DNA of 51,442 bases from NCBI GenBank assembly GCA_964525395.1, contig CAZGGU010000001.1:20456-71897 (forward strand), in the 5' to 3' direction. Positions 12,386-42,396 of this stretch are shown here, piece by piece (the first letter of the stretch is position 1; each line of letters opens with the position of its first letter). A program made the translations under genes and the position numbers. The DNA is from an uncultured Gammaproteobacteria bacterium (GTDB taxonomy: Bacteria; Patescibacteriota; Microgenomatia; Levybacterales; UBA12049). The notes beneath the pieces were generated by a model, which did no database searches, was not told the DNA's origin, and worked only from the letters and a program-made list of their open reading frames with translations.

Positions 12386-12414
12386 AATATACCTTTAAAG
12401 GCTTACTGTGTCAA
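12386..12414 (-). promoter_or_regulatory. sigma70-type promoter of the 141-aa gene, leaderless geometry
   Basis: On the minus strand: TTGACA, 17 nt, TATATT, then 8 nt to the ATG at 12377. Confidence 0.55.
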
Positions 12415-12434
12415 CCTTCATGTATAATGCTTCT

Positions 12435-13031
12435 ATGAATAAAGCGCTTAACCATTTTAAAAAATCAGATCCTATACTTTATGAAATAGCGAAAGAAATA
12501 GTAATCAATCAAAAAGAAAAATCTCAGAATTATTTTATCGATTTAGTCGAATCAATTATTTCTCAGCAATTATCCATTAAAGCCGCAGATACTATATTTA
12601 ATAGATTTCAAAATTTATTTATTAATGAAAAAATTACTCCTGAGCAAACATTAAAAATAGATGATCAGAAAATGAGAAACTGCGGAATTTCTTTTTCTAA
12701 AATTAGATATATAAAAGGAATTGCTGAGGCAATAATTAATCAGACGATTGACTTGAATAAACTTGATGAAATGACAGACGATGAAGTTATTACGGAACTT
12801 ATCAAACTAAAAGGAGTAGGGAAGTGGACTGCGGAAATGTTTCTGATGTTCTCTTTATCCCGTGAAGATATTTTTTCTACAGGAGATTTAGGATTGCAAA
12901 ATGCGGTCATAAAAGTTTATGGACTAAAGAAAAAACCAACAGAAAAACAGCTTTTAAAAATTAGTAAAAAGTGGTCGCCCCACAGAACTTATGCTTCTAG
13001 AATTCTTTGGAAAAGTTTAGAAATTAAATAA
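12435..13031 (+). CDS. HhH-GPD DNA glycosylase (AlkA / 3-methyladenine glycosylase II type)
   Basis: QQLSIKAADTIFNRF, LIKLKGVGKWTAEMFLMF (HhH-GPD) and a catalytic-Asp context, STGDLGL. The track start is GTG at 12408. The ATG at 12435 is preferred because TATAAT (12423-12428) sits 6 nt upstream. Confidence 0.8.
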   Translation: MNKALNHFKKSDPILYEIAKEIVINQKEKSQNYFIDLVESIISQQLSIKAADTIFNRFQNLFINEKITPEQTLKIDDQKMRNCGISFSKIRYIKGIAEAIINQTIDLNKLDEMTDDEVITELIKLKGVGKWTAEMFLMFSLSREDIFSTGDLGLQNAVIKVYGLKKKPTEKQLLKISKKWSPHRTYASRILWKSLEIK

Positions 13032-13698
13032 TCTCCCAAAGATTTAGATCTCCATCTTTTAAATCAACATCTCCCTTTAAATACTTTATGATATATTCTC
13101 CCACTATCCCCGGCTCTTCTCCGTTATCAAATTTCCACATCTGGGTTTTAGTAGCACCAGGGGAGACAGAGAAAATTTTCAAATCAGGAAATTCTAAAGC
13201 CAAACTTTTCGTAAATCCTATTACACCAAATTTGCTAGCAGTATAAACAGCTCGTCCTGCAAACGGAATATGACCAGCTCGGCTTGCGATGTTAATTATC
13301 CCAACTTTTATTTGTGGGAGAAGTGCTGAGGTTACTTTTACTAAACCTTCTAAATTTATTCTCAGTTGATCTTCTATTTCCTCAAAGTTTTCATTTTCAA
13401 ATCCTTCCCAGGAAATAACTCCAGCATTATTGATTAAGAAATCTACATGACCAAATTTCTCAACTGCTACACTTACAGCATCGTTAATACTATTATTATC
13501 TTTAAGATTTAGTTCCAGCACTAAAACTTCAGGAGAACCCAGCTCCAAACATTTATTTTTTACTTTTTCTGCTGCATCAGCATCTTTGGAATAAGTGATC
13601 ACTAGTCTTGCATTTTCCCGTGCAAATTCATATGCAATCGCTTCACCGATACCACGACAAGAACCAGTTATGAAAATAATCAAATTATTAAGATTCAT
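13024..13698 (-). CDS. short-chain dehydrogenase/reductase (SDR)
   Basis: TGSCRGIG cofactor motif, NNAG, and the YTASK catalytic Tyr-x3-Lys. Confidence 0.85.
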   Translation of the reverse strand: MNLNNLIIFITGSCRGIGEAIAYEFARENARLVITYSKDADAAEKVKNKCLELGSPEVLVLELNLKDNNSINDAVSVAVEKFGHVDFLINNAGVISWEGFENENFEEIEDQLRINLEGLVKVTSALLPQIKVGIINIASRAGHIPFAGRAVYTASKFGVIGFTKSLALEFPDLKIFSVSPGATKTQMWKFDNGEEPGIVGEYIIKYLKGDVDLKDGDLNLWEII

Positions 13699-14155
13699 TT
13701 TTCATGCTATACAGCCCAATAAATTCAGCTTTTTCTAATAAACTCTGACCAATTATTGATTCTAATTCTACACGAGAAATATTCTGCGACACAGAAAGCG
13801 GGGAAGATAGCGCATATAATTTAAACCTATAATGATGCGCTCCTGTGGGAGGACAAGGACCAGTATAGCCAATTTTTCCCCTTCCATTCATTCCCTCTGT
13901 CGCCTCAAATGGAACAGAATTTTCTTCAATTATGTTAGTTTTAGGATCGATATTCCAAACTAACCAATGAGTAAATGTAGATCCTGTCCCTTTCGGATCT
14001 GTCGCAGCATCAGGATCATCAATAATAATCGCTAAACTTTTTGTCTCTTCTGGGACTTCAGAGAAATGTAACTCAGGACTATAATTCTCCCCCTCACAAG
14101 TATAAGTAGTAGGAATCAATTGGTTATTTTCAAATGCCGGAGAAGAAAATTTCAT
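13688..14155 (-). CDS. PEBP / YbhB-YbcL family protein
   Basis: SPELHF, IIIDDPDA, HWLVWNI and CPPTGAHHYRFKLYAL are hallmark PEBP motifs. Confidence 0.85.
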   Translation of the reverse strand: MKFSSPAFENNQLIPTTYTCEGENYSPELHFSEVPEETKSLAIIIDDPDAATDPKGTGSTFTHWLVWNIDPKTNIIEENSVPFEATEGMNGRGKIGYTGPCPPTGAHHYRFKLYALSSPLSVSQNISRVELESIIGQSLLEKAEFIGLYSMKNES

Positions 14156-14231
14156 AAATCTATCTTAGTACAATCAAAAAAATTTGCAAGCTAAATTTGC
14201 ATTCATTTAAAATTTATGACCATAATAAATT

Positions 14232-15083
14232 GTGAGACTGTCCGAATCAAAAATTATCCTCCTTTTAATTGCTTTCGCTATATTAATAGTAGGTATTCTC
14301 TTTTTAGCTTTTGACGAAAAAAATAAGTCACTCGAGAACAACTCCAGCTCCATTCAACAATCCCCACTTTTAACAAAACTCTCTCAAGGATTGTCAGACG
14401 CTAATTGGAGCAGTCCAGAAATGATAAATCAATCAGCAGGAACATATGGCGAAAAGGAAGGGCAGAAAATCACAGCCACTATTACTACTAAGGATGCCAT
14501 GCCTGTTAACTTTAATGAAAAAGCTTACTTAGAATCCCAAGGCTATAAAGAAGATCCTCAGCTCGCAGCAGGTGGTGCGGGCTCAAGCGTTTGGGGATAT
14601 TCCAAAGCTGAAAATGGTGCCACCAGTGTCGTAGTTTTCTCTTCAGAAACACAACCATCCAACAGTAATCAAAATGCACCAGCTGAATTTAATTGCCCTT
14701 GCCAAACTCAGATTAGTATTTTCGTAAGCACTCCTCCGCCCGCATCAGCTAATTCTAATGCTTCATCAACATCTACTGTAGGCTTAGCCAACCCTGCATC
14801 AGTTAACTGCGGAAATGTCGGCGGAACTACTTCTATCCAAAACGGCCCAAACGGACAGTATGGACTATGTGAATTCGGAGATAATATGGCATGTGAAGAA
14901 TGGGCTCTTTATAGAGGAGAGTGTCCAGTCGGTGGTGTAAAAACCACAGGATTTAACACAAAAGCTCAAATGTATTGCGCATGGGTAGGCGGACAAACAT
15001 TAGCAGTACCTAATGCTACCTGCACATTGCCGTCCGGTAAAGTCTGTTCAGACGAAGCAGTCTACAACGGCACCTGCTCATAG
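14232..15083 (+). CDS. membrane-anchored secreted protein with Cys-rich DUF333-like C-terminal modules
   Basis: N-terminal TM. NPASVNCGNVGG...GLCEFGDNMACEEWALYRGECP resembles DUF333. GTG (or ATT) start immediately after an in-frame TAA. Confidence 0.6.
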   Translation: MRLSESKIILLLIAFAILIVGILFLAFDEKNKSLENNSSSIQQSPLLTKLSQGLSDANWSSPEMINQSAGTYGEKEGQKITATITTKDAMPVNFNEKAYLESQGYKEDPQLAAGGAGSSVWGYSKAENGATSVVVFSSETQPSNSNQNAPAEFNCPCQTQISIFVSTPPPASANSNASSTSTVGLANPASVNCGNVGGTTSIQNGPNGQYGLCEFGDNMACEEWALYRGECPVGGVKTTGFNTKAQMYCAWVGGQTLAVPNATCTLPSGKVCSDEAVYNGTCS

Positions 15084-15108
15084 TGATCAAGGTCCAACTA
15101 CCCATTAG

Positions 15109-16353
15109 CTAATCCTTAATTGGCACTGAATTTATAAATGAGTAGTACATTATTAAAATCGTATCTTTAGAATCATGATAAATAAAATCCCCTCCATTAT
15201 CAAGGAATTTAATTAATGGTTTCGATGTATAAACCTGCTCACCTTCAAAAAATGGATAGAAATTTTTATTAAATGGCAAAAGTTTTGTAAATAAATAAAA
15301 CCCAACGAAAAGATTTAATACAAGAATTAATCCTATGAAAATTTTCTTCTTATGAGAACTAATTAAAAATGCACAAGAAATTGTAATAGATACAAAGATT
15401 GGAATAAAAATTCCATTTCTAACAAAAGGTAATGTAGAAAGTCCTAATATAAATTGAAAAACAACTAACAAAAGATAACTACTGTTTGCGAGAAAAAGAT
15501 AAAGAGTAAATTTCTTTAATTTTTTATTTCCTTTATTTACTATAATAATAAGACTAAAAAAATAAGTTACAACAAATATTAGACTTCCTAGAGGAACAAG
15601 AAACAAATTCGATAGAGAATTAAATGTAAGATCGATAAATAATGAAAGAGAGTTGTATCCCCATCCAAACTTAGAGGCATGAATCAAATCTTTAATAACA
15701 GGACTATATAAAATTATCGAACTCAATGGAATAATTGCACCTGAAATGAAGATACTAGCTCGATACTTTTTATCAACTATCATACTAGCAAGATAAATTA
15801 AGGGGAGAGTTAAAATAAATGTTGGAATTGTCCAAATTGAAAGAATAAAGAAAATTGAAGAATAATAAAATTTTTTCTTCAAAAAAAAATTTATTCCAAG
15901 AAATAATAGCAAACTACCTAATAAATATCCCCTCCCTGAAATAAAATATGGAGTCAGAAGTGGGCTTGCGAAGAATATTAACATTGAGATTGAAAATAAT
16001 AATTTAATTGATTTTTCTTTTTTTAAAATCCTACAAATAATTAATCCAGAGAGATATAAAAATAGTGCTCCAACCAAACAGTTGAAGACTCTCAATTCTA
16101 AAGGAAAGTAGATCAATATTTTTTTATGGGCAAAAAATGATTGAATAAATGTGAAAAAGATATGATTATTCGGCAACTCATAATGAGTAAGCGTAAAAAT
16201 TGGTCCATATCTAGCAAATCCTAAATAATTCCAAGCCTCATCTCCAGTTAAAGGCAACAGTGGATAAAAAATGCTTATAAATATTAAACTACAAAATAAA
16301 AAAATGAGATAAATAAAAAATCTATACTTATTCAGATAATTTAATAAAGCCAT
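15109..16353 (-). CDS. polytopic membrane protein, candidate GT-C (ArnT/PMT-like) glycosyltransferase
   Basis: 414 aa with more than 10 hydrophobic segments. An acidic GDEAWNY motif follows the first TM, as in GT-C enzymes. Confidence 0.45.
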   Translation of the reverse strand: MALLNYLNKYRFFIYLIFLFCSLIFISIFYPLLPLTGDEAWNYLGFARYGPIFTLTHYELPNNHIFFTFIQSFFAHKKILIYFPLELRVFNCLVGALFLYLSGLIICRILKKEKSIKLLFSISMLIFFASPLLTPYFISGRGYLLGSLLLFLGINFFLKKKFYYSSIFFILSIWTIPTFILTLPLIYLASMIVDKKYRASIFISGAIIPLSSIILYSPVIKDLIHASKFGWGYNSLSLFIDLTFNSLSNLFLVPLGSLIFVVTYFFSLIIIVNKGNKKLKKFTLYLFLANSSYLLLVVFQFILGLSTLPFVRNGIFIPIFVSITISCAFLISSHKKKIFIGLILVLNLFVGFYLFTKLLPFNKNFYPFFEGEQVYTSKPLIKFLDNGGDFIYHDSKDTILIMYYSFINSVPIKD

Positions 16354-23866: not shown

Positions 23867-26338
23867 TTAGTAGTGGGTTTTTTTGTAAGGTCTTCTTGCG
23901 CCGCCGCGAGTTGGGTTGTTTCTTCTATAAGAATCTTCTCTTTCACGTCTAAATTGCATAGCTAGTGGGTGCGCTGCTTCTGGTCCCGCATTTGGATCAT
24001 CATGCCTAGGCCCCTTCATTGGAGCTGGAGTTGGCCCCATATGTATAGGGGCTGCTGGTGCATTAAAATCTGATCTTGGAGCAAAATCTCTTCTTGGTGC
24101 GAAGTCACGTCTAGGCCCTCTGTCATTTCTTGGACCTCCACGGAATCCACCACGATCATTTCCGCCACGGAAACCACCACGATCTCCACCCTCACGTCTT
24201 GGACCTCTTGGTCCGCGTTCTTCTGCTGGTGGAATTTCTCCATTTTCACCGAATTTCATAGAAAGGTTAATTCTACCTTGATCATCGATTTCCATTACTC
24301 TAACTTTTACTTTGTCTCCAACTTTTACTACATCTGCTGGATCTTTTACGAAATCATTAGACATCTGAGAAACATGAACCATTCCTTCTTTTCCAGGCAA
24401 GAATTCTACAAAGGCTCCGAAATTAAGAAGTCTTTTTACCTCTGCTTCTTCAAAAATTTCTCCCGGAGTTACTTCTCTCATCATATTAGTAATCCAATCA
24501 GTTCCTTTTTGAACAGCTTCTGCATCTACTCCTGAAATAGTAACTGTTCCATCATCTTCTACGTCAACCTGAGCACCTGTGGTAGCAATAATATTTTTAA
24601 TATTCTTTCCGCTTGGTCCTATAAGTTCTCCAATTTTCTCAACTGGAATTGTAACTGTTTCAATTTTAGGTGCATATTCTGAAAGCTTATCATTTGGCTT
24701 TGGCATAAGTTTATTAATCTTTTCGATAATAAATATTCTTCCAGCCTTTGCTCTCTCAAGTGTTGCTTTTACTTGATCATCTGTAAGTCCTGGAATTTTA
24801 ACATCTAACTGAATAGCTGTAATGCCAGTATCTGTTCCAGCTACTTTAAAATCCATATCTCCTGAGAAATCTTCTAAACCAATAATGTCTGTTAATAATT
24901 CATATTTTTTATCGTCTGACATCATTCCTACAGAAACTCCAGCAACAGGCTTTTTGATTGGTACACCGGCATCCATAAGAGCAAGAGTTGAACCGCAAGT
25001 GGAAGCCATAGATGAAGATCCGTTTTGTGAAAGAACTTCTGAAACAACGCGAATGGTGTATGGGAATTCTTTTTGTGTTGGAATAACAGCCTCAAGTGCT
25101 CTTTCTGCCAATGCTCCGTGACCAATTTCACGTCTTCCGGGTGAACCTACGCGACCAGTTTGACCAAATGAAAATGGAAGTCCTGAGTAATGATGGATGT
25201 ATCTTTTATCTACTTCGCCTTCAGCTGATTCAATAAGCTGCCCCATTCTAGGAGAACCTAGAGTTACTATTGATAAGGCTTGAGTAATTCCTCTTTGGAA
25301 AAACGCTGACCCATGAGTTCTTGGAAGAACATCAACTTTCATTTCGATATCGCGAATTTGATCCATTTTTCGTCCGTCAGGTCTTTTTCCTTTTTCCATA
25401 ATTCCGCCGCGAATAGCTTTATACATTACTTTTTCAATTCCTGCTGCAATAACTTTTTTATCAATTGGAGATTCAGCGTCTTTCATGTGAATCTCTTCAT
25501 CAATCTTTTCGATTAACGCATTAACATCGTCATTTCCTGAGTCTTTTGCCACTCTAGCATCAAGCAGTGCCTGAACATCTGCTTTATATGTCTTATCAAT
25601 AAGAGTTACTACTTCGTTTAAGTCTTCATCTGCAGGTACTTCAAGTTTTGTTTGTCCAACTTTTTTAACTAAATCTTCAATTCCTTTAATAATTCCTTGT
25701 GTTTCTTCGTGTGCTCTTACGATCGCTGCATGCACAATGTCTTCTGAAACCTGATTAGCTCCAGCCTCAATCATTACTGATTTTTCAGCTGTCTGAGAAA
25801 CTACTAAATCAAGATTGGAATTTTCCATTTCAGGAAGTGTTGGGTTAACGATTAACTCACCTGTTTCTTTGTTAACACCCATGCGAGTTGCACCTACTGG
25901 TCCGTTCCATGGAATTCTAGAAATAGCTAAAGCTGCAGAAACTGCATTTAATGCGAGAATATCAGCCTGATTTTCACCATCAACTGATAAAACAGTGATG
26001 ATTACCTGAACTTCATTTTTAAATGCTTTAGGAAATAATGGTCTAACCGAACGATCAATTAGGCGTCCAGCAAGAATAGCTTCGTCTGATGGACGACCTT
26101 CTCGCTTTACCCAACGTGAACCTTTAATTTTTCCTCCAGCATATAATCTTTCTCCGTATTCGATAGAAAGTGGGAAATAATCTAGGGATGTTTTTCCGCC
26201 TTCAACTACAGTAACTAGAACTACTGTATCTCCAATGCGCGCGAAAATAGATGAAGTGGCTTGTACAGCTAACTCACCTGTTTCAAAGGTCATTTTTTTG
26301 CCCGCTAATTCGAGTTCTACTGAGGTTACTTTATTCAT
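23867..26338 (-). CDS. pnp: polynucleotide phosphorylase with a ~125-aa Arg/Gly/Pro-rich C-terminal extension
   Basis: Two RNase PH domains, KH (GPSGKNIK) and S1 (GAFVEFLPGKEGMVHVSQ). These are followed by GGDRGGFRGGNDRGGFRGGPRNDRGPRRDFAPRRDFAPR.... Confidence 0.95.
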   Translation of the reverse strand: MNKVTSVELELAGKKMTFETGELAVQATSSIFARIGDTVVLVTVVEGGKTSLDYFPLSIEYGERLYAGGKIKGSRWVKREGRPSDEAILAGRLIDRSVRPLFPKAFKNEVQVIITVLSVDGENQADILALNAVSAALAISRIPWNGPVGATRMGVNKETGELIVNPTLPEMENSNLDLVVSQTAEKSVMIEAGANQVSEDIVHAAIVRAHEETQGIIKGIEDLVKKVGQTKLEVPADEDLNEVVTLIDKTYKADVQALLDARVAKDSGNDDVNALIEKIDEEIHMKDAESPIDKKVIAAGIEKVMYKAIRGGIMEKGKRPDGRKMDQIRDIEMKVDVLPRTHGSAFFQRGITQALSIVTLGSPRMGQLIESAEGEVDKRYIHHYSGLPFSFGQTGRVGSPGRREIGHGALAERALEAVIPTQKEFPYTIRVVSEVLSQNGSSSMASTCGSTLALMDAGVPIKKPVAGVSVGMMSDDKKYELLTDIIGLEDFSGDMDFKVAGTDTGITAIQLDVKIPGLTDDQVKATLERAKAGRIFIIEKINKLMPKPNDKLSEYAPKIETVTIPVEKIGELIGPSGKNIKNIIATTGAQVDVEDDGTVTISGVDAEAVQKGTDWITNMMREVTPGEIFEEAEVKRLLNFGAFVEFLPGKEGMVHVSQMSNDFVKDPADVVKVGDKVKVRVMEIDDQGRINLSMKFGENGEIPPAEERGPRGPRREGGDRGGFRGGNDRGGFRGGPRNDRGPRRDFAPRRDFAPRSDFNAPAAPIHMGPTPAPMKGPRHDDPNAGPEAAHPLAMQFRREREDSYRRNNPTRGGARRPYKKTHY
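24138..24184 (-). repeat. 27-nt-period coding repeat (DRGGFRGG x2) inside the pnp tail
   Basis: ccacggaatccaccacgatc (24138-24157) and ccacggaaaccaccacgatc (24165-24184) differ at 1 position. Confidence 0.8.
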
Positions 26339-33565: not shown

Positions 33566-33997
33566 TTATAAAAGTAAAGTATTCACAATCATGTAAACAA
33601 TCCATTTATTGTAAATGTAGTGAATTAAAACAGCGATAATGAAAGCCAAAATCAACCAGTAAACCCCTTTTTTTCCTAATAAATAAATAAATATAAAATT
33701 AGACGTATGAATAATGGTCGTAAAAACTAAACGGATTAAAAAAAGATTTGTATTTCCATTCAGAAATATATTATTTAAATATAAAATCGCTTCTGAAACA
33801 GAAAACAATATTCCCGCAAGAACTAGATACTTTAAGAGACTTTTCTTTAAAACTTTTTCTTGCTTATAAATAAGCAATACTATTAAAACCGTAAATAATT
33901 CTTCAATTATTGAAGGTATGGGTATAATCCACTCAATAAACAAGATTGGAAGAGGTGCGACAAAAGCTGCAAACAAAATAAGATATAAAACATTCAT
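33566..33997 (-). CDS. small polytopic membrane protein, possible minimal PrsW-like intramembrane protease
   Basis: 4-5 TMs. IIEELF (EE), FSVSEA (FxxxE), IIHTSN and LIHYIYN (HxxxN) occur in the order of the PrsW motifs. ATGA overlap with the upstream 1044-aa gene. Confidence 0.35.
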   Translation of the reverse strand: MNVLYLILFAAFVAPLPILFIEWIIPIPSIIEELFTVLIVLLIYKQEKVLKKSLLKYLVLAGILFSVSEAILYLNNIFLNGNTNLFLIRLVFTTIIHTSNFIFIYLLGKKGVYWLILAFIIAVLIHYIYNKWIVYMIVNTLLL

Positions 33998-36900
33998 TTA
34001 TCTACAATAAACTGATCGCTTACCCAGCCCTTTAAATTTTCACCGTCATATTGGAACTCAACTTGAATCCAGTTTTCTTTATGATTAACTTTCTTCGCAA
34101 GTACGCTTTTTTGTAATCTTTTTACTATTTGGGTATTAAGAGATGGCCCTTCTCTCAAATTAACTGCACTGGGGGAAGCAACAATTTCCACATTTTCCAT
34201 CTTAGTCCTTGCTCCCAAAACAGACTTTTCTCCAGATAAATCAACTTCTTCACGAGAACTTTCTGAGACTTCTTTCTGCTCTTCTCGAGAAGTTACTGTA
34301 TTCTTCTCTTCCAAGGCTGGCTTTGAAGACTTATCCTTAAACATAAAAATACCCAATATTAGCGATAAACCCAAAACGATAATCATCATAAAAGCAATAA
34401 CTTTTTTAGATATTAACTTATCGAATTCATAGAAAATATTTGTAATCGGAGAGAAATAACTAGCATAAAATCCTTTTGTATTTCCTCCGTCTTTTTTTCT
34501 GCTTCCTACGAAGATTAGTCGCATATATAAAGCAAGAAAGATAAAGCCAGCTAATAGCACAATTATTATTCCCCAGACAGCTAAAACTTGTGCCCCTCCC
34601 ACGAATCCAAAAAGCGACCCAGCAGAGCTGGCAGAAGTTCCGAGCGTTTTCAAATCATTTATCTCAGATTTAGCTTTATCAACTTGAATTACTGCATCCC
34701 TATATGCCTTAATCCTCTCTTCAGGAGTATTGGCATCTTTTTGAATTCTTGATGCAGAGTCTAAAGAGGCAACAATATCAGCATAAAGCGTCGCGCCTTG
34801 CCCAAAATATGAAGTCCCTTTAAGTGGCGCGTATAATTCTTTTGCTTGAATTCTTAGCGAAGATATTTCTTCATCTGATATTTTCCAAATATCTTTAACT
34901 TCAACTGAATATATTCTCGTGGCATTTGCTGCCAATACTACTTGCCCGCTGGCATAATATGCATCTTCAGCCGCATCATATTCAATTGTTAAATCATCAT
35001 CTTTTTTTATTACATCTTTCTCTGTTGCTTCTTTTGGCAAATAAAACTTAACTGGAATTGTCTGAGCCACACCGGTGGGATTAGTTATCAACGTTTTAAA
35101 AATAATACTGCCTTCTTCCATCCAGGTCTGAACGATAGGGCTTTTTGTACCATTTTCTAGTAAAGATTTATTTGCTTGAGTCAATGCTTGCAATGAAAGT
35201 ACACTATTTTTAAGACTTTGCAGATCCGAAGCATTTGCTTGCGAAAGCGTTAATATTTCCGAAACGCCCGAAATAGAATTTGAATCTGAAACATCTGTGG
35301 AAATTGCATTTATTTCATCGATAATATCAGCAGCTGTATAACTATCCCACTTAGCAAGTAGATCTGAAAGCCCAGCGCCAGATGTATCAAGATTTTGAAT
35401 TGTTTCTTTATTTAACTTTAATCTTCCATATAAGGTCGCTGCAGAAGAGGTGTCTGTGCTTGTTCCAATTTTAGTCTGCATGGAAGAAATCTCAGTAATA
35501 ATCGATTGCATATCTTCATAGGCAGTCGTAGATTTCCCGTTGTAATTAAGTTCATTCTTTAAATCATCAATATCTGATTGAGTAGCTGTAGCCGAATTGT
35601 AAATATCATCAGCTGTTCTTGAGCCCCATTTGCCTTTAATACAATTAACCTGTCCAAAAATAGTTGAATCTAAACAACCATCCGCTGCGTCCCCCAACGA
35701 GGAATTGTCGAGAGCATTTACTGCTGTCATTAAATCTGCCATCGTATAGCTTCCCCATTTTGCTAAGATTGTATCTGCCTTGGTATCTATACCGTCCACC
35801 GTCGTATTGATCGAATCCACATTCGTACTAATAGTATTAACCGTGGTAGAAACGCCTGCCACTTCAGTTGAAACATCAGATAGACTTTTATTATTAGGTC
35901 CTTTTATCGAGATCGTACTAGATGAAACATCGTCCCTTGTGGCTTGAATTTTTCCAAAAACTGTAAGCGCCGAAGAATTATCCCCCGATGCTCCAATATT
36001 GTTATTCAATGTTTGAGCGTAAGTCTTTATCGCCTGCAAATCATCATATGCGGTAGAAGATTTACCATTATAGTTAAGCTCATTTCTAAGTGCAGCCGAA
36101 TAAGTGGCTGCATTATTAGCTGCCAAATAAAGTGAGTCCGCAGTCTGACTTCCCCATTTATCCCTAACGCATTTTATACTTCCGAAGATTGTACTTCCGG
36201 AACAAATATCAGAATTTGAACCTAAACTTGTCTCGAGAGTATCCACATAACCTATCAAATCGCTTGCGCTATATGATCCCCACTTAGAAAGAATTGAAGA
36301 TGCATTAGAATTTATAGTATCTACTTTTGTGTCCATGGAGTTAACCGTAGTAGTCAACGAATCAATTGAAGATTGGGCTGTAGCAATACTTGTATTAATC
36401 TGCGTTAAATCCTTATTTCCCGCACCTTTTATAGATGTAGTGGCTGAGGAAGTAGCAGAATCTACATCTGATTTAGTAGCCAATTGTCCACCATCAGCTA
36501 AATTCGCACCAGTCAAGGTTCGCGTCGCACTACTCCAAACATCAGCAACAAGTGTTCCAAACGTGGTCAGTGACCTCGCTGAATAGCTCCATATGTCAGA
36601 GATAAGTGTGCCAAATGAACTAAGTGTCCTTGAAGGGTAACTCCAGATATCTGCAGTTGAAGGAACAGTATTCTGTAGCTTTTCTCCGAAACTTCCTGAC
36701 GTCACATGGGCACTGGCTGTCGCATTCCAAACTTGATCTGCTGTTTTTTCTTCAATGGTAAAAGACTTATCGAGCTTCAGTGTATCACCGCCCGTTACAC
36801 AAGTTATCTGACTTCTATATAAGCCAAGGGTCATATTAGAAGTGTTAAATGTATATGAATACCAGCCATCGCTTTCAGCAGCTGATGTCATAGATTGACC

Positions 36901-37128
36901 ATTTAAAAAGAGGGATCCATCGGGGTAACGACTAGTTAGGGTGCAGGTAGCGTCTGTGATTGGCGCATATGAATCATCATAAAGATATTCACCTATTGAG
37001 CAAGCCGAGCCTTCTGCGCATTTTTGATAACCTGCACTTGATGCATCCACAATACCTGGGACAATAAATACGTAAGATAATATAAAGATTATAGATAAGA
37101 TAATCTTTAACTTATTAGACAGAAGCAT
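33994..37128 (-). CDS. 1044-aa repeat-containing surface protein: Sec signal, beta-sandwich, W-repeats, ~180-aa tandem repeats, two TMs, C-terminal SH3b
   Basis: Signal peptide ending VDA/SS with no twin arginine. Internal repeats are listed as separate features. The TM pair lies near aa 860-945. The C-terminus, VNLREGPSLNTQIV...NWIQVEF...LKGWVSDQFI, fits bacterial SH3. The start lies 2 nt after the tatA stop. Confidence 0.75.
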   Translation of the reverse strand: MLLSNKLKIILSIIFILSYVFIVPGIVDASSAGYQKCAEGSACSIGEYLYDDSYAPITDATCTLTSRYPDGSLFLNGQSMTSAAESDGWYSYTFNTSNMTLGLYRSQITCVTGGDTLKLDKSFTIEEKTADQVWNATASAHVTSGSFGEKLQNTVPSTADIWSYPSRTLSSFGTLISDIWSYSARSLTTFGTLVADVWSSATRTLTGANLADGGQLATKSDVDSATSSATTSIKGAGNKDLTQINTSIATAQSSIDSLTTTVNSMDTKVDTINSNASSILSKWGSYSASDLIGYVDTLETSLGSNSDICSGSTIFGSIKCVRDKWGSQTADSLYLAANNAATYSAALRNELNYNGKSSTAYDDLQAIKTYAQTLNNNIGASGDNSSALTVFGKIQATRDDVSSSTISIKGPNNKSLSDVSTEVAGVSTTVNTISTNVDSINTTVDGIDTKADTILAKWGSYTMADLMTAVNALDNSSLGDAADGCLDSTIFGQVNCIKGKWGSRTADDIYNSATATQSDIDDLKNELNYNGKSTTAYEDMQSIITEISSMQTKIGTSTDTSSAATLYGRLKLNKETIQNLDTSGAGLSDLLAKWDSYTAADIIDEINAISTDVSDSNSISGVSEILTLSQANASDLQSLKNSVLSLQALTQANKSLLENGTKSPIVQTWMEEGSIIFKTLITNPTGVAQTIPVKFYLPKEATEKDVIKKDDDLTIEYDAAEDAYYASGQVVLAANATRIYSVEVKDIWKISDEEISSLRIQAKELYAPLKGTSYFGQGATLYADIVASLDSASRIQKDANTPEERIKAYRDAVIQVDKAKSEINDLKTLGTSASSAGSLFGFVGGAQVLAVWGIIIVLLAGFIFLALYMRLIFVGSRKKDGGNTKGFYASYFSPITNIFYEFDKLISKKVIAFMMIIVLGLSLILGIFMFKDKSSKPALEEKNTVTSREEQKEVSESSREEVDLSGEKSVLGARTKMENVEIVASPSAVNLREGPSLNTQIVKRLQKSVLAKKVNHKENWIQVEFQYDGENLKGWVSDQFIVDK
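35293..36453 (-). repeat. two full and one partial ~180-aa tandem coding repeats in the 1044-aa protein
   Basis: Unit 1 (aa ~226-400) and unit 2 (aa ~402-580) share ILxKWGSYxxxDL..., C..STIFG...C..KWGS.TAD, NELNYNGKS.TAY.D.Q and S.A.T..G. A third copy starts LLAKWDSYTAADI. Each full unit has a Cys pair 11 residues apart. Confidence 0.8.
36499..36738 (-). repeat. four short ~18-aa repeats (A/S)D(I/V)W(S/N)xxxR(T/S)Lxx(F)G(T)L
   Basis: ADQVWNATASAHVTSGSFGEKL, ADIWSYPSRTLSSFGTL, SDIWSYSARSLTTFGTL and ADVWSSATRTLTGANL, at aa 130-210. Confidence 0.75.
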
Positions 37129-37130
37129 TG

Positions 37131-37310
37131 TTATTCTTTACTTTCTTTTTTATCTTTAGCTTTTTCTTCATCACCTCGAAAAGCACCTAAGACTTCTTTA
37201 ATTGCTTGGGACAAGCCTTTTGCGAATTCTGGCAATTTTTTAGGACCAAAAATTATTAAAAGGACTACAGCAACGATTATTATTTCAGTTTTACCTATAC
37301 TATCAAACAT
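37131..37310 (-). CDS. tatA: twin-arginine translocase subunit TatA/E (59 aa; below the ORF-track cutoff)
   Basis: Translation: MFDSIGKTEIIIVAVVLLIIFGPKKLPEFAKGLSQAIKEVLGAFRGDEEKAKDKKESKE. This shows the canonical TM, the FGPKKLPE hinge and an amphipathic helix. A GGAGG Shine-Dalgarno sequence lies 9 nt upstream. Confidence 0.9.
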   Translation of the reverse strand: MFDSIGKTEIIIVAVVLLIIFGPKKLPEFAKGLSQAIKEVLGAFRGDEEKAKDKKESKE

Positions 37311-37336
37311 GTATAAACACCTCCCTTCAAGAGCAG

Positions 37337-38053
37337 TTAATGTCTATTTAATAGTAGCCCAAACTCGAATAAAAAGAAAAGTGGCAAAGTTAACATAATT
37401 AATGAGAAAAGGTCTGTCGGCGGGAGCAAAACGGCTACCAAGAGTAGCCCTAGATAAACATATTTTCTCTTTTTCACCATCTCACTCCTTTTTACAATTT
37501 TTAATCTAATTAAAATAGTAACAATTATCGGGACTTGGAAAATAATTCCAGTCAGAAATGAAGTAAATAAAATCTGCGAAAGAAAATTCTGAATGTCCCA
37601 AAAACTATCGACCCCAGAAGAAGTCCAGACATTGGAATAAAAATTTATAATCTGCTGCATAATCCACATTCCAAACGAAAAGCCAACGATAAAAAGAAAA
37701 ATTGAAAGTGGAGCAAAAGAAAGTATTATTTTTCTCTCTGTAGGCTTTAATGCAGGCTTAAAAAAAAGATAAAGCCTAATAAATGAGTAGGGAAGTGCAA
37801 TAATAATTCCTACTATAAAACTTACAGTAAAAGTGAGACTGATATACTGATACGGAGATGTGGTAATTATGCTTACATTTTTAAAGTTATATAACCCAAG
37901 AATAAAATCGACGATTTTCTGACTATTTACTAGTCCAAAAATTGCCCCCACTATAAAAATTACGAATATAATAAAAACTTGCAATCTAAGCTCCAGTAAA
38001 TAGGGCCTATATTTTATATAAAGTTCGTTTAATTCTTGCGATTTATCTTCCAT
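37337..38053 (-). CDS. tatC: twin-arginine translocase subunit TatC
   Basis: LLELR, TSPYQYISLTFTVS, FFKPALKPTERK, FQVPIIV, KRKYVYLGLLLVAVLLPPTDLFS and FLFEFG align along the whole length with TatC. Six TMs. Confidence 0.92.
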   Translation of the reverse strand: MEDKSQELNELYIKYRPYLLELRLQVFIIFVIFIVGAIFGLVNSQKIVDFILGLYNFKNVSIITTSPYQYISLTFTVSFIVGIIIALPYSFIRLYLFFKPALKPTERKIILSFAPLSIFLFIVGFSFGMWIMQQIINFYSNVWTSSGVDSFWDIQNFLSQILFTSFLTGIIFQVPIIVTILIRLKIVKRSEMVKKRKYVYLGLLLVAVLLPPTDLFSLIMLTLPLFFLFEFGLLLNRH

Positions 38054-38080
38054 TTACAGCTAATCGTAACATTTTTATCC

Positions 38081-38110
38081 TTGAACAAACAATAAAAGTA
38101 AATATACAAT
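38081..38110 (+). promoter_or_regulatory. promoter of the three-gene beta-rich module, leaderless geometry
   Basis: TTGAAC, 18 nt, TACAAT, then 6 nt to the ATG at 38117. No Shine-Dalgarno sequence. Confidence 0.5.
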
Positions 38111-38116
38111 GTAAGA

Positions 38117-38533
38117 ATGGCAGCCAAATTTGACCCAATTTTAGGCAAGCTTAGAACTGAGGACAGAGGAGTTACAGAAGGTAGCTTTGGAATAACTATT
38201 GATGGTGGTGGAAATGTAATTACAACTGGCACGAAAGGGTATGTAACAATTCCCTACGACTGCACTATTACTGGTTGGGATATTTTCGCAGACCAAACTG
38301 GTTCATGCGTAATTGACCTCTGGAAGGATACCTATTCGAACTTCGCACCAACTATTGCAGATACCATAACGGGTACTGAAAAACCCACACTTAGCTCTCA
38401 ACAAAAAAACAGAGACACCTCCCTCACCACCTGGACAACGAATATTTCAGCTGGAGATATCATAGCGTTTAATGTCGACAGCGCTTCGACAGTACAGCGC
38501 GTAAATGTTATTATAAAAGTTAATAAGATTTAA
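38117..38533 (+). CDS. 138-aa signal-less beta-rich protein (module gene A); possibly related to small proteins of phage tail/structural modules
   Basis: GITIDGGGNVITTGTKGYVTIPYDCTITGWDIFADQTGSCVIDLWKDTYSNFAPT...W.T.I.AGD...FNV. From memory I associate this pattern with ~130-aa phage-encoded proteins; unverified. No signal peptide or TM. Confidence 0.55.
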   Translation: MAAKFDPILGKLRTEDRGVTEGSFGITIDGGGNVITTGTKGYVTIPYDCTITGWDIFADQTGSCVIDLWKDTYSNFAPTIADTITGTEKPTLSSQQKNRDTSLTTWTTNISAGDIIAFNVDSASTVQRVNVIIKVNKI

Positions 38534-38535
38534 AT

Positions 38536-40707
38536 ATGGCTAAACTCGCAGTAAATATTAATTATGGAAACTTAGCTACCTATGTTTTTCCTGGTGGATA
38601 TGATTCAACTAAGTTAGGTCTTGGACCTCTGATTACTCAAAAAAATGGAGGCGGAGAAGGCAATTATGCTGGCCCATATCCGATCGCACTTGCTCGCCCA
38701 ATGGAACAAAGTACAGCAATACCCGGGATCTATCCATGGGCTATGCAGTGGTCTTCAACTATTGATTGGGTCTTTCTAGCTGATAATGCAGCTGCAGCAG
38801 CCACCAGAAGAATAATTCTTTACACATACAATCGCGCAACAAACGCATTCTCCTGGCAAGGTTTTATCACTATTGGCTTTCCATTCGGTGGAACCCAAGG
38901 AACATACACAATCACTGGCATGAGGATGACCTACGACACATATTCTACGGGTTCAGCAAGCGCATCAGGCACTGCTGTCACCGGCTCTACAACCGCGTGG
39001 CAAACCGCCAGAATAGCTGTGGGAGCAAGGATAGGCTTTGGATCTACTGATCCAACGCAAATTACCACTTGGTATGATATTTCCGCGATCGGCAGCGACA
39101 CAAGCATTACACTTAGCACTTCCGCAGGTACTGTAAATTCTGGATCATACGTTATCGAAGAATTAAGAGCTATTGTCCTTACAAAAAACGGCACCACTGC
39201 TACCAACGGAGGCTTATTTATAGTTAAAGGATTAAATTACTCAACATTTAACACCGCTGGTTCACCTACTATCGCAGCCGCAACCACGACTGATAACATA
39301 CGGGCAACTTATTGGGTAAAAGATGCAGCCACATCTACCAACACCAATGGAACTGGACTAGCTATACAGACTAAGGACTCAAATACTCAGCATTACGTCT
39401 GGGTACTACAAGGTACTACTACTATGCAGCTTTATAAATATAATCTAAGAGCCGCACTAACACTCACCTCTGGTGCGGATACTGCTAATTCTTGGCAATT
39501 TTCTACAGGCGTTACTGCAACACTAACAGGTACTGCATCACAGGCTAATAACGGCAGACTTGCAAACATGTCTTCTGGGCCTGGCTCAGGCCTTAACTGT
39601 ATTTACTTCACAACAACAACCAGAATATATCGATCAGTTGATGTATCAACAATTACCACTGGTGTAACAAATTTCCTTGCAGACAATTCGGCTGAAATAC
39701 CCCCTGGAAGCGCAAGCTCTACAGCTGCATCCTCTCTGCTAAACAGCATTGAGTACGCCACGTCATTAGATAAGATGATAGTTATGACTACGGGGGCAGC
39801 AGGCGTCAGGTCCTATGTAACGCAATACAGAACTGATTCTGGACAATGGGATAGACTTTTTTTGATAGACAATAAGCAAATTGATCAATCATTAGCAGAT
39901 TCTACTCTTACTCCTTTTCCTTCAATCCTTGCAAGAGCATTTTCGGTTTGGTCAGAAGGTGGAGTTGCCTATTTAGCTGGTATCGGCACAACGGCGGCCA
40001 CTAACTTACTTTATGCAATTCCATTAGGAGCAGATTGGGAATATACTTCTACCACAAACTGCAGAGTTGTAACACCATCTTTAAGTACTCCGAATGTAGA
40101 CTCTTTTGATAAAGTTTATACTAACTCCGTAACAATTCTGGGCGGCGCTACTGGACAAGTATTGGGCTTACCACTCGAAGCATTTGAAACTCATTACAGA
40201 ACAACAGGAATTTCTGATAACTCTGGCAGCTGGATTACCCTAGATGACAGTGGAGATCTATCAAGCGTATCGCCCTCAAATGAAATTCAGTTTGCTTTTG
40301 ACTTTAGAACAATCGGAACTACATGCATACCTGCTAGGCTCTTAAGCACAACAGTTACGTATAACGATCTATCTACAGATAGTCATTTCCAGCCATCAGT
40401 TACAAATTCATCCGCCGCTACAAAAATATTTTCATGGAGGTTTTCCACTGCTTTTGGAGGAACTGTACCTGCAATGAGAATTCGACTATATAATGCTGTT
40501 ACAAATGGAAGCTTACTTGATGATAACACTACAGATCATGCATCAGGTACTTGGGAGCAATCAACAGACGGTGGTTCTAATTGGTCTTCATATACAACAG
40601 TTGGGAGTCCTTTGGCTGATAAAGCAAATGAAACTACTTACATACGCTATACACCTACTTCGATTGCCGATAATATAAAAGTCAGAGCATTATTAACTCA
40701 AAACTAA
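38536..40707 (+). CDS. 723-aa signal-less T/S/A/G-rich, Lys-poor protein (module gene B): putative beta-propeller plus C-terminal beta-sandwich with an Asp-box
   Basis: About 14 Lys in 723 aa, against Lys-rich neighbours. Recurrent blade-like strands (RRIILYTY, GLFIVKG, HYVWVLQG, NCIYFTT, KMIVMTT, GVAYLAG). STDGGSNW (40561-40584) fits SxDxGxxW. The start lies 2 nt after the gene A stop. Confidence 0.6.
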   Translation: MAKLAVNINYGNLATYVFPGGYDSTKLGLGPLITQKNGGGEGNYAGPYPIALARPMEQSTAIPGIYPWAMQWSSTIDWVFLADNAAAAATRRIILYTYNRATNAFSWQGFITIGFPFGGTQGTYTITGMRMTYDTYSTGSASASGTAVTGSTTAWQTARIAVGARIGFGSTDPTQITTWYDISAIGSDTSITLSTSAGTVNSGSYVIEELRAIVLTKNGTTATNGGLFIVKGLNYSTFNTAGSPTIAAATTTDNIRATYWVKDAATSTNTNGTGLAIQTKDSNTQHYVWVLQGTTTMQLYKYNLRAALTLTSGADTANSWQFSTGVTATLTGTASQANNGRLANMSSGPGSGLNCIYFTTTTRIYRSVDVSTITTGVTNFLADNSAEIPPGSASSTAASSLLNSIEYATSLDKMIVMTTGAAGVRSYVTQYRTDSGQWDRLFLIDNKQIDQSLADSTLTPFPSILARAFSVWSEGGVAYLAGIGTTAATNLLYAIPLGADWEYTSTTNCRVVTPSLSTPNVDSFDKVYTNSVTILGGATGQVLGLPLEAFETHYRTTGISDNSGSWITLDDSGDLSSVSPSNEIQFAFDFRTIGTTCIPARLLSTTVTYNDLSTDSHFQPSVTNSSAATKIFSWRFSTAFGGTVPAMRIRLYNAVTNGSLLDDNTTDHASGTWEQSTDGGSNWSSYTTVGSPLADKANETTYIRYTPTSIADNIKVRALLTQN

Positions 40708-40708
40708 C

Positions 40709-40894
40709 ATGGCTTTAGAGGATATCGTATTTCCAGATGGAGACCCGCAAAACTTTATTCAAACCATGAATAGAGGCAATGTGGGCACAATTAGCGATAT
40801 TACCACTGAAACAAACTCCAACTCAGGTATACTTTTAGCAGAATGGACCTCTGCCACTACAGCCGAAACTACTGCATTCACCTGGGTATCTTAA
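40709..40894 (+). CDS. 61-aa signal-less acidic T-rich protein (module gene C)
   Basis: The ATG lies 1 nt after the gene B stop. Its composition matches A and B (no Lys). Confidence 0.45.
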   Translation: MALEDIVFPDGDPQNFIQTMNRGNVGTISDITTETNSNSGILLAEWTSATTAETTAFTWVS

Positions 40895-41737
40895 CTAGAA
40901 TGTAGCACTAAATGAAGCATAACTTTCTGAAGCTCTATTTGACCAATTATAACTACTGCCCCCTTTCGCATATAAGAAAGATCCATCCCCAACTTCTTTT
41001 ACAATATACCAAGCACCATCTTTATTTATGAAACCATAATAATAGGGGGTAGAAGAGGTATCCGTGTTAGCGATAGCATAACCGTCAGTTGGAGATTTGA
41101 TTGCTGGATCAATTAATGTTCCCGTTGTGTCTTTAATACCTACAGTTCCGGGCCCTGGTACACTACCAAAAAAAGCCGCACCTGCTTTTTGAGGATTTAA
41201 CATCATTGCTACAAAAACACCAAGACCAGCTCCTGCTAATAACTTAAAAAACTTTCTTCGATCAGCCTCTTTAACAATTTCTCCATTTTTAATCTCAGCC
41301 ACATCGTCAATCTGAAAGTTAAAAATATTTTCTTCATAGCTTGATATTTTTCTACCTTTTTTTATAGGCGAAACATTTTTAACACTACTTATAATTTTTA
41401 ATAAGAAATATATCTCAAGAGGCAAAAAGAATAACACGAAAAATATTTCATCTGCGCTGTGGATATTTAATATTATGGAGAGAAAAAGAACATTAGAAAA
41501 AATAAAGCTATAATAATTAAGAAAGTGCATCATCTTCTTAGATTGATTCTTAGAAATAACACCTTTTATAACTGGTGCAATATTTAGAAGATTTAATAAG
41601 AAGTATGCCTCAATAGGAATAAGTAAAATTAAAAATAAAAGATTATTAATTTGATCCTCATCATTGAAACCAATAAAGAGCAAACAAGAAACCAAGAATA
41701 AATTATAAATTAATAATATATTAATGACCTTCTTCAT
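40895..41737 (-). CDS. polytopic membrane protein: duplicated 2-TM hairpin (4 TMs), internal twin-arginine signal/5th TM, ~95-aa exported C-domain
   Basis: The duplicated segments share PIEAYFLLNLL / PLEIYFLLKII and FNDEDQI / HSADEIF. aa 157-188 read EADRRKFFKLLAGAGLGVFVAMMLNPQKAGA, i.e. RRxF(F/L)K plus an h-region plus an AxA-like site. Confidence 0.65.
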   Translation of the reverse strand: MKKVINILLIYNLFLVSCLLFIGFNDEDQINNLLFLILLIPIEAYFLLNLLNIAPVIKGVISKNQSKKMMHFLNYYSFIFSNVLFLSIILNIHSADEIFFVLFFLPLEIYFLLKIISSVKNVSPIKKGRKISSYEENIFNFQIDDVAEIKNGEIVKEADRRKFFKLLAGAGLGVFVAMMLNPQKAGAAFFGSVPGPGTVGIKDTTGTLIDPAIKSPTDGYAIANTDTSSTPYYYGFINKDGAWYIVKEVGDGSFLYAKGGSSYNWSNRASESYASFSATF

Positions 41738-42396
41738 TTCCTTTTCTCCCTTATATTTTTATCAGGCACCCAACCTAACTCGACTTGACCTTCGATCTTA
41801 ATTTGGTACCAGCCAGCAGTTTTTTTAAAATAATCTACTTCTGAGCCGACTTGAAGTGAAGTAATCACAGCCGAAATAGTAGTTCCATCTTTATAAACAT
41901 CAACTGCTTTTCGCACAGGATCATAAATCTCTACTTTTCCAAGCGAATTAGGCGCAATTTGATTCTTGGCAGACGTAGGGTGAACATAGCTAGAACTATT
42001 TACCGAATAATACTCACCAGCAACTTTTGTAGATTGATCTGCACTAATTACACCAGATGTGGTCGATGCTGATAAAACACCATAGTCAATATCATCAGCA
42101 CCATTTGTAATAATATTATCCACTCTTGCACTTAATTTTTTTAGCTTTTCCGTGTTCCCATCTGCCATTTTTTTTGCTTCGACTTCAGACTGACGTAAAA
42201 CTGTCAGCTCTAGCTCATGACGCTTCTTTTCTTCTTGAAGTGAATTAATTTTTATATATCCCGCAAAACAAATGATTAACGGAACAATTAACAATAGGGC
42301 AATCAAGCCTAATTTTTTCTTTTCCTTGAATATATTTTCTAAATCTAGATTCTCTTTTTTCCACGGAATAAAATTGGGCAAATTAAAGTCCGACAT
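41734..42396 (-). CDS. bitopic protein: N-terminal TM, coiled coil, C-terminal SH3b-like domain
   Basis: TM LGLIALLLIVPLIICFAGYI, a heptad-like EEKKRHELELTVLRQSEVEAKK, and a C-terminal VDVYKDGTT...GSEVDYFKKTAGWYQIKIEGQVELGWVPDKNI. ATGA-type overlap with the downstream gene. Confidence 0.6.
   Translation of the reverse strand: MSDFNLPNFIPWKKENLDLENIFKEKKKLGLIALLLIVPLIICFAGYIKINSLQEEKKRHELELTVLRQSEVEAKKMADGNTEKLKKLSARVDNIITNGADDIDYGVLSASTTSGVISADQSTKVAGEYYSVNSSSYVHPTSAKNQIAPNSLGKVEIYDPVRKAVDVYKDGTTISAVITSLQVGSEVDYFKKTAGWYQIKIEGQVELGWVPDKNIREKRK

Follow-up and report, generated by a model that had tools for sequence, protein, structure and literature searches.

Why should a bacterial chromosome keep relatives of phage tail-fibre genes directly beside the genes of a protein exporter, when none of the encoded proteins carries an export signal of its own? 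The question is raised by three tightly packed genes, here termed A, B and C, in a stretch of 51,442 nt of assembly GCA_964525395.1 (contig CAZGGU010000001.1, positions 20,456-71,897, forward strand), which was analysed as a whole and is called the window in the following. The genes lie next to tatC and tatA of the twin-arginine translocation (Tat) system. An earlier note, made from the letters of the sequence, had taken them for a compositionally atypical island encoding phage-like binding proteins. Following up this note, we propose that A-B-C is a domesticated phage tail-fibre module whose products leave the cell in folded state as hitchhikers on the Tat system and serve at the surface for adhesion or glycan binding. 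We infer both the export and the function, and we rate the chances of the proposal as a whole at about even.

38117-38533, forward strand: gene A, open reading frame (ORF) of 138 amino acids (aa)
38536-40707, forward strand: gene B, ORF of 723 aa
40709-40894, forward strand: gene C, ORF of 61 aa, a small acidic protein

Results

Proteins A and B are of phage ancestry. Protein A matched PHROG 35197 over residues 18-137 (E = 1e-29) and PHROG 10330, annotated as 'virion structural protein', over residues 27-135 (E = 3.7e-19). A tblastn search returned matches in 17 cyanophage records, and A shares 37% identity with the C-terminal half of virion proteins of ~224 aa, which T4-like cyanophages encode inside their tail-fibre modules. 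The earlier note had linked two motifs of A (at residues 28 and 58) with phage structural modules, which is borne out by these matches. The AlphaFold2 (AF2) model of A is a jelly roll (pLDDT 87) with low confidence for the first 20 residues; its best structural match in the PDB was the tail fibre of Agrobacterium phage 7-7-1 (E = 1e-3, TM-score 0.5), followed by generic jelly rolls. The phage relatives of A are located in tail or tail-fibre modules (S-SSM7, S-SCSM2R and the viral loci L074, L043 and L014); the window copy is chromosomal. In S-SSM7 (L005, 7653-14113) and S-SCSM2R (L006, 7650-13614), a very large protein annotated as 'TolB' is encoded one gene beyond the A-domain protein. TolB is a name usually given to propeller proteins, and an A-domain protein followed by a large protein may, judging from these gene orders, be an arrangement more general than the B family.

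Protein B gave no match in profile searches against Pfam (E <= 0.1), PHROG, PADLOC, NCBIfam and PDB sequences, nor in a tblastn search of 50,697 deposited phage genomes. It belongs to a large family with more than 1800 homologs, the best 120 listed being 51-81% identical, mostly over 90-100% of the query; an exhaustive search gave 394 clusters at 50% identity, nearly all of ~700-720 aa. The AF2 model is all-beta (pLDDT 85.5, pTM 0.80) and predicts a propeller-type core followed by a C-terminal beta-sandwich region with one strict Asp-box (STDGGSNW, residues 676-683). The model thus agrees with the propeller-plus-sandwich architecture suggested earlier, and the nearest structures belong to propeller proteins from phage tails. 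In Foldseek, the LME-1 portal-tail complex ranked top with its chain M (9efk; E = 3e-12, TM-scores 0.22/0.20), followed by phage endosialidases (E ~1e-5, probability 1.0, TM-score ~0.3, 8-10% identity), WD40-type propellers, podophage tail proteins, P22 gp10-like 'DNA-stabilising' proteins in BFVD (2e-6 to 5e-9), and a pseudaminidase, a GH43 xylosidase and an arabinanase (1e-5 to 1e-4). The tail of LME-1 consists of portal, adaptor, hexameric nozzle and fibre (PMC12407071), chain M being a candidate for the nozzle. B does not group with podovirus nozzle or tail-hub proteins: Pfam and PHROG gave no match, TM-scores were low (0.14 to P22 gp10, 8u10_1), and its phage loci encode sheath and tube.

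Where does B reside in phages? We sampled 80 B loci from IMG/VR and 78 from species-representative genomes and called and clustered their ORFs. On viral contigs, B lies inside long co-directional gene arrays. In L074 it is surrounded by PhoH, virion proteins, a head-tail adaptor and a tail sheath, and in L043, a contig of 519 kb, the order is sheath, tube, two small proteins, a 1613-aa protein, an A-domain protein, B, terminase and portal. In 34 of 72 viral loci, the gene immediately upstream of B encodes an A-family protein. L014 has a 1125-aa protein in this position whose C-terminus is the A domain, and in L016 the upstream protein contains collagen repeats. In phages, B is therefore encoded right after the end of a fibre-like protein within myovirus tail modules, which is the neighbourhood that the earlier note had asked to be checked. 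TatC was found beside B in none of the 80 viral loci.

The situation in cells differs in this very point: TatC adjoins B in 61 of 77 species-representative genome loci. The remaining 16 comprise ten prophage-like loci outside the Patescibacteria and six contigs that end <=1.7 kb after B; prophage-like B loci occur in Armatimonadota, Lysinibacter, Polaromonas, Roseomonas, Opitutia, Planctomycetaceae and Dependentiae. In cells, c3 (~209 aa) is usually followed by one to three copies of B, then by c4 (~218 aa), C, TatC, TatA, a large envelope protein termed BIG and two copies of a family termed c1, and the part of this order from c3 to TatA is held across many lineages with short gaps. In L002, BIG has dockerin and MG2 domains. 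The c1 proteins (L002, L090) combine a signal-like N-terminus with a C-terminal membrane anchor, with an Ig-like domain in one of them. Proteins of the C family (~60 aa) were present in 70 loci of the first clustering, and the hidden Markov model (HMM) of the family recognises the window C with 4e-23; in 52 of 76 genome loci and 16 of 79 viral loci, one of the three genes downstream of B encodes C. Both c4 and C have phage counterparts beside B. In sequence-family searches, C (against Pfam and PHROG), c3 and c4 gave no match.

The window shows this locus in an inverted layout with the following neighbours.

37337-38053, reverse strand: TatC (Pfam TatC, 2e-44), divergent from A-B-C across a gap of 63 nt
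37131-37310, reverse strand: TatA (Pfam TatA_B_E, 1.1e-13), which follows TatC in most related loci
33994-37128, reverse strand: BIG, a 1044-aa envelope protein (Pfam SH3_3 and SH3_4), the conserved partner downstream of TatA
40895-41737, reverse strand: 280-aa membrane protein matched by the c3 HMM, with an internal twin-arginine-type signal, convergent with C
41183-41260, reverse strand: RRKFFK (residues 160-165) and the hydrophobic stretch LLAGAGLGVFVAMML inside the 280-aa protein, from a motif and hydrophobicity scan
41734-42396, reverse strand: 220-aa protein with an N-terminal transmembrane segment, a coiled coil and a C-terminal SH3_3 domain (Pfam 1.7e-6)

The protein encoded directly upstream of B belongs to c3 in 56 of 65 genome loci and to the A family in two, so that a phage-type partner A in this place, as in the window lineage, is uncommon among cellular loci. 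Its order of BIG, TatA and TatC on one strand and A, B and C on the other recurs in L087 and in L167, a metagenome-assembled genome (MAG) of Dojkabacteria. Besides L087, whose B is 93% identical to that of the window, the contigs L109, L110, L114, L138, L152 and L164 are labelled 'uncultured Gammaproteobacteria' and carry a Patescibacteria-type locus with c3 or A, B and TatC. The other close relative of the window is the Dojkabacteria MAG. Such labels look unreliable. Three tandem B paralogues (~880, ~807 and ~944 aa) occur in L120, L121, L133, L138, L139, L144, L145, L149 and L162 (~10001-15200 in each), at a place where other genomes have a single B. SEML1_0315, an essential dockerin protein of Southlakia epibionticum, was considered as a marker of the locus and dismissed, as its neighbours are unrelated and the tables of that genome list no TatC.

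A twin-arginine-type signal was found in a single type of protein. No signal-like N-terminus is present in A, B, C or c4, be it in phage or cell loci, in line with the description of A, B and C as signal-less in the earlier note. In contrast, all Tat-linked c3 copies with an intact N-terminus share the pattern D-x-x-[KR]R-x-F-L-K, followed by an h-region and A-x-A (A-[EDS]-A), which is lacking from all four c3 proteins on viral contigs, likewise encoded directly upstream of B. With TIGR01409 (curated cutoff 16.7 bits), the RR-type c3 proteins of L091 and L108 scored above the cutoff (18.5 and 18.8 bits), and the c3 proteins of L002, L122 and L123 scored below it (14.7, 13.3 and 7.5 bits), with the K-R types missing it narrowly. 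As the C-terminal domain of c3 stands directly upstream of B in four viral loci, the Tat-signal protein derives from a phage partner of B. A candidate relationship of c3 with A was rejected, since no HMM match was obtained and hhalign gave a probability of 0.5%.

In the window, the part of c3 would be taken by the 280-aa protein. The c3 HMM matches its residues 127-214 (E = 4e-14), a stretch holding DRRKFFK-LLAGAGLGVFVAMML...AGA, which points to this protein as the counterpart of c3 and, judged from sequence patterns, the one protein of the locus with a twin-arginine-type signal. Its family has 326 members in the Microgenomates group of the candidate phyla radiation (CPR), one of which, 41% identical, is named a Tat-signal protein by UniRef. 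In L165, where B is 61% identical, a member directly precedes B, C, TatC and TatA, and in L248 another adjoins TatC and TatA. Residues 1-130 include two similar transmembrane-hairpin segments (LLFLILLIPIEAYFLLNLLN and IFFVLFFLPLEIYFLLKIIS) ahead of the RR motif, an unusual position for a Tat signal that is kept in L248. The 220-aa gene and the start of the 280-aa gene share 4 nt, and both genes probably form one operon; a small SH3 protein also precedes the 280-aa-family gene in L249, as does a small protein of similar size in L248. A suspected relationship of c4 to the 280-aa protein was rejected.

BIG of the window has a signal-like N-terminal segment, internal repeats, two transmembrane segments and a C-terminal SH3 domain. 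At least two repeats of ~190 aa are clear (ILSKWGSYSASDL...NELNYNGKSSTAYDD and ILAKWGSYTMADL...NELNYNGKSTTAYED), with a third being partial. Its N-terminal ~260 aa are 35-41% identical to large proteins encoded after TatA in 51 loci.

Is B a fixed part of this locus? A metagenome scan starting from TatC (alignment of seven sequences) gave 80 loci, 19 of them with at least 4 kb upstream; nine of the 19 carry B-c4-C and ten lack B, c4 and C altogether. The B-less loci with c3 (L179, L180, L192, L205, L220, L226 and L233) show c3, a protein of ~950 aa, one of ~180-310 aa and then TatC. The ~950-aa proteins are signal-less and rich in Thr, Ser and Gly, with Kelch-motif matches in two of four members tested. 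They were considered as divergent B proteins and rejected as such (hhalign probability 2.5%), being a separate family. Its members range from ~890 to 1450 aa, lie in the slot between the Tat-signal protein and TatC, and were located as follows.

L179, 3022-5898: slot protein of the ~950-aa family
L180, 6321-8987: slot protein of the ~950-aa family
L192, 4711-7809: slot protein of the ~950-aa family
L205, 6240-9095: slot protein of the ~950-aa family
L248, 9848-14203, reverse strand: slot protein of the ~950-aa family, 1451 aa

L248 has the inverted layout of the window with this ~950-family member replacing A-B-C. Hence, the Tat-signal protein and TatC, usually together with TatA and BIG, are constant and the part between them varies.

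The cassettes of the window and of L248 have one further feature in common. The N-terminal peptide KFDP[IVL]LGKLR is present in 20 of 20 A proteins of ~138-145 aa (P0121-P0140; KFDPILGKLR in the window, 38117-38176); the longer members of the A family, P0141-P0144, lack it. In the unrelated cassette of L248, the first small protein (14594-14965, reverse strand) starts MPSTFDKILGKQL, and an FDxILGK motif was not found beyond the 138-aa A class and this one L248 protein. KFDP[IVL]LGKLR and MPSTFDKILGKQL may represent a shared docking peptide, a suggestion from two cassette types only.

The compositional deviation reported before was confirmed in part, and as originally put the claim is weak. The GC content of A, B and C (41-42%; window 36.4%) exceeds that of the 45 other ORFs (35.8 +/- 3.9%) only slightly (z = 1.4-1.7). 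For B, the excess lies at second codon positions (GC2 = 0.547, z = 3.5), with third positions close to the background (GC3 = 0.297, z = 0.9) and GC1 under the mean. This GC2 excess is explained by the amino-acid content of the protein, of which Thr, Ser, Ala and Gly make up 45% and Lys and Glu 3.7% (26% and 15% in other genes), in keeping with the low lysine count reported before (14 in 723 aa). GC3 is raised in A and C (z = 2.2 and 2.6), both being short genes. In a parametric test of synonymous codon choice against other genes of the window, B deviated mildly (z = 3.4), and A (1.5) and C (-0.4) were typical. Of the 43 background genes, two scored higher than B, the 1044-aa gene next to it reached 3.36, and B stays inside the span seen for other long genes. 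The strongest deviation in the window belongs to an 823-aa gene (23867-26338, reverse strand; z = 7.1), well above B. The atypical composition claimed before is thus mostly a matter of the encoded amino acids. These set the proteins apart, and a foreign origin of the DNA is not evident.

Other features of the window point in the same direction as the statement of the earlier note that A-B-C is not a prophage. For ~9 kb on either side there are Tat, envelope and housekeeping genes, and NusA, signal peptidase I, DnaJ, GlmS and DnaK are encoded in the flanks of the Tat/A-B-C region. Within this distance we found no integrase, terminase or capsid gene, and in the whole 51-kb window neither a tRNA nor a match to any Rfam family. 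The spacers between the ORFs, 2 nt (A-B) and 1 nt (B-C), were read from the sequence as previously described, as was the Asp-box. The stop codons of C and the convergent 280-aa gene abut without any intergenic base (40892-40897), and no terminator-like hairpin is present at this junction, with promoter and terminator scans at chance level. One promoter-like site had been highlighted upstream of A:

38081-38110, forward strand: TTGAAC-18 nt-TACAAT, a 9-of-12 match located 6 nt upstream of the ATG of A

The site is indeed there; as 20 such sites were counted in the surrounding 5.6 kb compared to 17.4 +/- 4.0 in shuffled sequences, it carries no statistical weight and is not a distinctive promoter. 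A Shine-Dalgarno sequence was not seen ahead of A, B or C (38105-38119 and the gene starts). TACAAT at 6 nt from the ATG of A gives the region 38105-38119 a leaderless-type look, which is statistically not distinctive.

To what extent is the module under selection? Between the window and L087, synonymous divergence (pS) is saturated at ~0.7 in all genes. Nonsynonymous divergence (pN) is 0.039 for B and 0.14-0.26 for TatA, TatC, BIG and the 280-aa gene, so that B is under very strong purifying selection. The identity of B to the window copy is 93% in L087 and 79% in L167, whereas TatC, TatA and BIG are closer in L167 (window 33994-41737), a discordance that suggests replacement of B in one lineage. 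A neighbour-joining tree, the internal branches of which are short, shows Tat-linked B proteins interleaved with those of phages and cellular B as polyphyletic. Strong conservation, discordance and interleaving together argue for selection combined with occasional replacement from a phage pool. The cassette is kept in L087 and L167, yet the slot contents vary across Patescibacteria.

Discussion

Taken as a whole, the comparative data come close to one of the options of the earlier note, a domesticated phage-derived binding module. We suggest that A-B-C fills the variable 'cargo slot' of a conserved cell-envelope locus of Patescibacteria. A, B and C would fold and assemble in the cytoplasm and bind the only signal-bearing protein, c3 in most lineages and the 280-aa protein in the window, and the adjacent TatAC would then move the folded complex across the membrane in a 'hitchhiker' type of export. 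On the surface, A-B-C might act together with the large SH3 or dockerin-type envelope proteins, and the propeller of B might bind, and possibly cleave, a glycan on a partner cell or substrate, as the phage version might do where a tail fibre ends. That Tat can export partners without a signal in the form of heterodimers is established (PMC10924467), and the adjacent Tat genes together with a twin-arginine-type protein, a link that the earlier note had not drawn, offer an explanation for the signal-less nature of A-B-C.

Several points weigh against this proposal. That A, B and C leave the cytoplasm at all is something we infer indirectly, and a trimeric or hexameric B, like its structural neighbours, may be too large for Tat. 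Most c3 signals are of the K-R and not the R-R type. In the window, four predicted transmembrane helices precede the RR motif of the 280-aa protein, which has no TIGR01409 or Pfam TAT_signal match and lacks the C-terminal domain that c3 has in common with the phage proteins, so that a contact between it and A or B is conjectural. Moreover, A-B-C is divergent from tatC and not co-transcribed with it, and the Tat-signal protein lies on the opposite strand. With regard to function, the Foldseek TM-scores of B are low (0.2-0.3). B is also 50-60% identical across phages and hosts of several phyla, a degree of conservation that appears unusual for a receptor-binding tip and that a structural or enzymatic role would fit better.

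The last point leads to a variant of our proposal, namely that B is a secreted or surface sialidase-like glycoside hydrolase (GH) conserved for its catalysis. The structural matches to endosialidases, pseudaminidase, GH43 xylosidase and arabinanase (1e-5 to 1e-4), the strict Asp-box, 15 positions of invariant Arg, Asp or Glu in an alignment of 39 sequences and a family-wide conservation at a level typical of enzymes speak for it. Against it stand the absence of any BNR, sialidase or GH match in Pfam at E <= 0.1, the restriction to a single Asp-box in the C-terminal region, outside the propeller blades, and TM-scores of 0.2-0.3. The invariant residues of B, R92, R130, R165, E208, D253, D263, R341, E387, D412, R555, D561, Y609 and D611 among them, include Arg, Glu and Tyr, the residue types of a sialidase centre (Arg triad and Tyr/Glu nucleophile pair), with none assignable to a catalytic role. 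We consider this variant unlikely. A bolder extension of the hitchhiker proposal, possible in our opinion and clearly less probable than the proposal itself, sees in the locus a dedicated minimal TatAC that mainly exports swappable signal-less beta-propeller cassettes on a small carrier which gained a twin-arginine signal, the cassette type of c3 or A, B, c4 and C having come from, and being still exchanged with, the fibre tips of myoviruses.

But, do the proteins have to leave the cell? They could instead stay in the cytoplasm and act against phages, with a copy of the tail-fibre tip serving as poison subunit, decoy or sensor and Tat concerning only c3 or the 280-aa protein. Such a role would suit the missing signals of A, B and C, the tandem B paralogues of some genomes and the mere ~45% divergence of interleaved cell and phage B proteins, whose discordance with the flanking genes could reflect ongoing exchange or conflict. 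It is difficult to reconcile with the tight and consistent linkage to Tat and envelope proteins, with a non-phage-like Kelch-match family filling the same slot and with purifying selection on B that is atypical of an arms-race protein. PADLOC gave no match for A, B and C and marginal ones for neighbours (E = 0.043, and 6e-5 to a coiled-coil stretch). We regard an anti-phage role as improbable, and we think as little of the idea that the position beside tatC is a recombination hot spot without functional coupling, where B works independently of Tat, released by lysis or kept inside the cell. Unrelated cassettes at the same position, a cassette orientation varying by lineage, the polyphyly of cellular B in the tree and its presence in only nine of the 19 TatC loci whose upstream sequence extends over 4 kb or more are what one would expect of such a site. 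A passive landing site would, however, not be expected to preserve the order c3-B-c4-C-TatC-TatA, nor to have a Tat-signal protein that itself stems from a phage partner of B, nor c4 and C with phage counterparts beside B.

By far the least probable of all, and largely refuted, is a decaying prophage remnant or recently acquired island, to which the argument from composition had pointed. The phage ancestry of A and B, the slightly raised GC, the GC3 of A and C (z = 2.2-2.6) and the occurrence of B in prophage-like regions of Armatimonadota, Roseomonas and others would agree with it. Yet the three ORFs are intact, B shows a pN of 0.039 at saturated pS, and no integrase, terminase, capsid or tRNA gene is nearby, the flanks being housekeeping genes. 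Synonymous sites, GC3 and codon usage are near native, the order of A-B-C with TatC and TatA is kept in the synonymously saturated relatives L087 and L167, and TatC stands beside B in 61 of 77 genome loci.

Beyond type IV pili, it is to our knowledge largely unclear how the presumably host-dependent Patescibacteria (CPR) recognise and hold their partner cells. The locus described here, present in at least 61 species-level genomes, combines an exporter of folded proteins and a signal-bearing carrier with interchangeable large beta-propeller proteins, one cassette type being ~50-60% identical to phage tail modules. If the hitchhiker proposal is true, it would provide a concrete surface apparatus for Patescibacteria and the first phage-derived cargo of Tat hitchhiking, and phages and cells would share one pool of recognition modules. 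If TatAC is in fact dedicated to such cassettes, ultrasmall host-dependent bacteria would attach to or feed on their partners with the cell-recognition device of phages, which would mean that phage parts can be domesticated by a new route and that Tat has a new class of cargo. There is also a practical side: as B, c3, c4 and C lack Pfam and PHROG matches, Patescibacteria contigs with B can be mistaken for viral ones, or the reverse. In the literature searched, we found no description of the locus or of Tat hitchhiking combined with the re-use of phage tails. This suggests that, with both phenomena known, their combination at this locus is new.

Comparison with known systems

Among the systems that the locus resembles, the cyanophage proteins of PHROG 10330 and 35197 (S-SSM7 gp108, YP_004324161; S-CAM1; S-SCSM2R 'tail adaptor protein') are homologous to the window A. 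In these phages, a ~224-aa virion protein of the tail-fibre module has the A domain as its C-terminal part and is followed by large proteins, one annotated as 'TolB', whereas the window A is a stand-alone protein of 138 aa with its own conserved N-terminal peptide, encoded in a cellular chromosome. The cyanophages named are also without a B homolog, which the window has. With endosialidase tailspikes (K1F, 1v0e; phi92, 4hiz; K1E, P49714), B appears to share a beta-propeller core and an Asp-box at a TM-score of ~0.3 and 8-10% identity, but it has no sialidase or BNR match in Pfam. Endosialidases also possess an N-terminal capsid-binding and a C-terminal chaperone domain, both of which B lacks. 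Hub and nozzle proteins of podoviruses (P22 gp10, T7 gp12 and, as a candidate, 9efk chain M) are, as B is predicted to be, large all-beta proteins with a propeller-like domain; TM-scores are 0.14-0.22 and no sequence family is shared. The genomic setting differs as well, since B follows fibre-like proteins in myoviruses with sheath and tube and the podovirus hub follows portal and adaptor.

At the level of the whole locus, two known principles come together. Hydrogenase-2 (HybO/HybC) and dimethyl sulfoxide (DMSO) reductase (DmsA/DmsB) of E. coli are familiar examples of hitchhiking. A Tat hitchhiker is a folded partner that has no signal of its own and is exported together with the one subunit bearing the twin-arginine signal (PMC10924467), and the signal-bearing c3 or 280-aa protein and the adjacent tat genes could play these parts here. 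Known hitchhikers are cofactor-containing redox enzymes, whereas the putative cargo here would be a phage-derived beta-propeller, with mostly K-R signals. Tailocins (R- and F-type), extracellular contractile injection systems and type VI secretion systems, on the other hand, re-use phage tail parts in cells under selection, as is seen here. In these systems, sheath, tube and baseplate are retained, and the machine is either set free when the cell lyses or held in place by a dedicated membrane complex. The locus of the window and its relatives, in contrast, has kept only the module of the fibre end (A or c3, B, c4 and C), coupled to Tat and with no sheath, tube or baseplate genes nearby.

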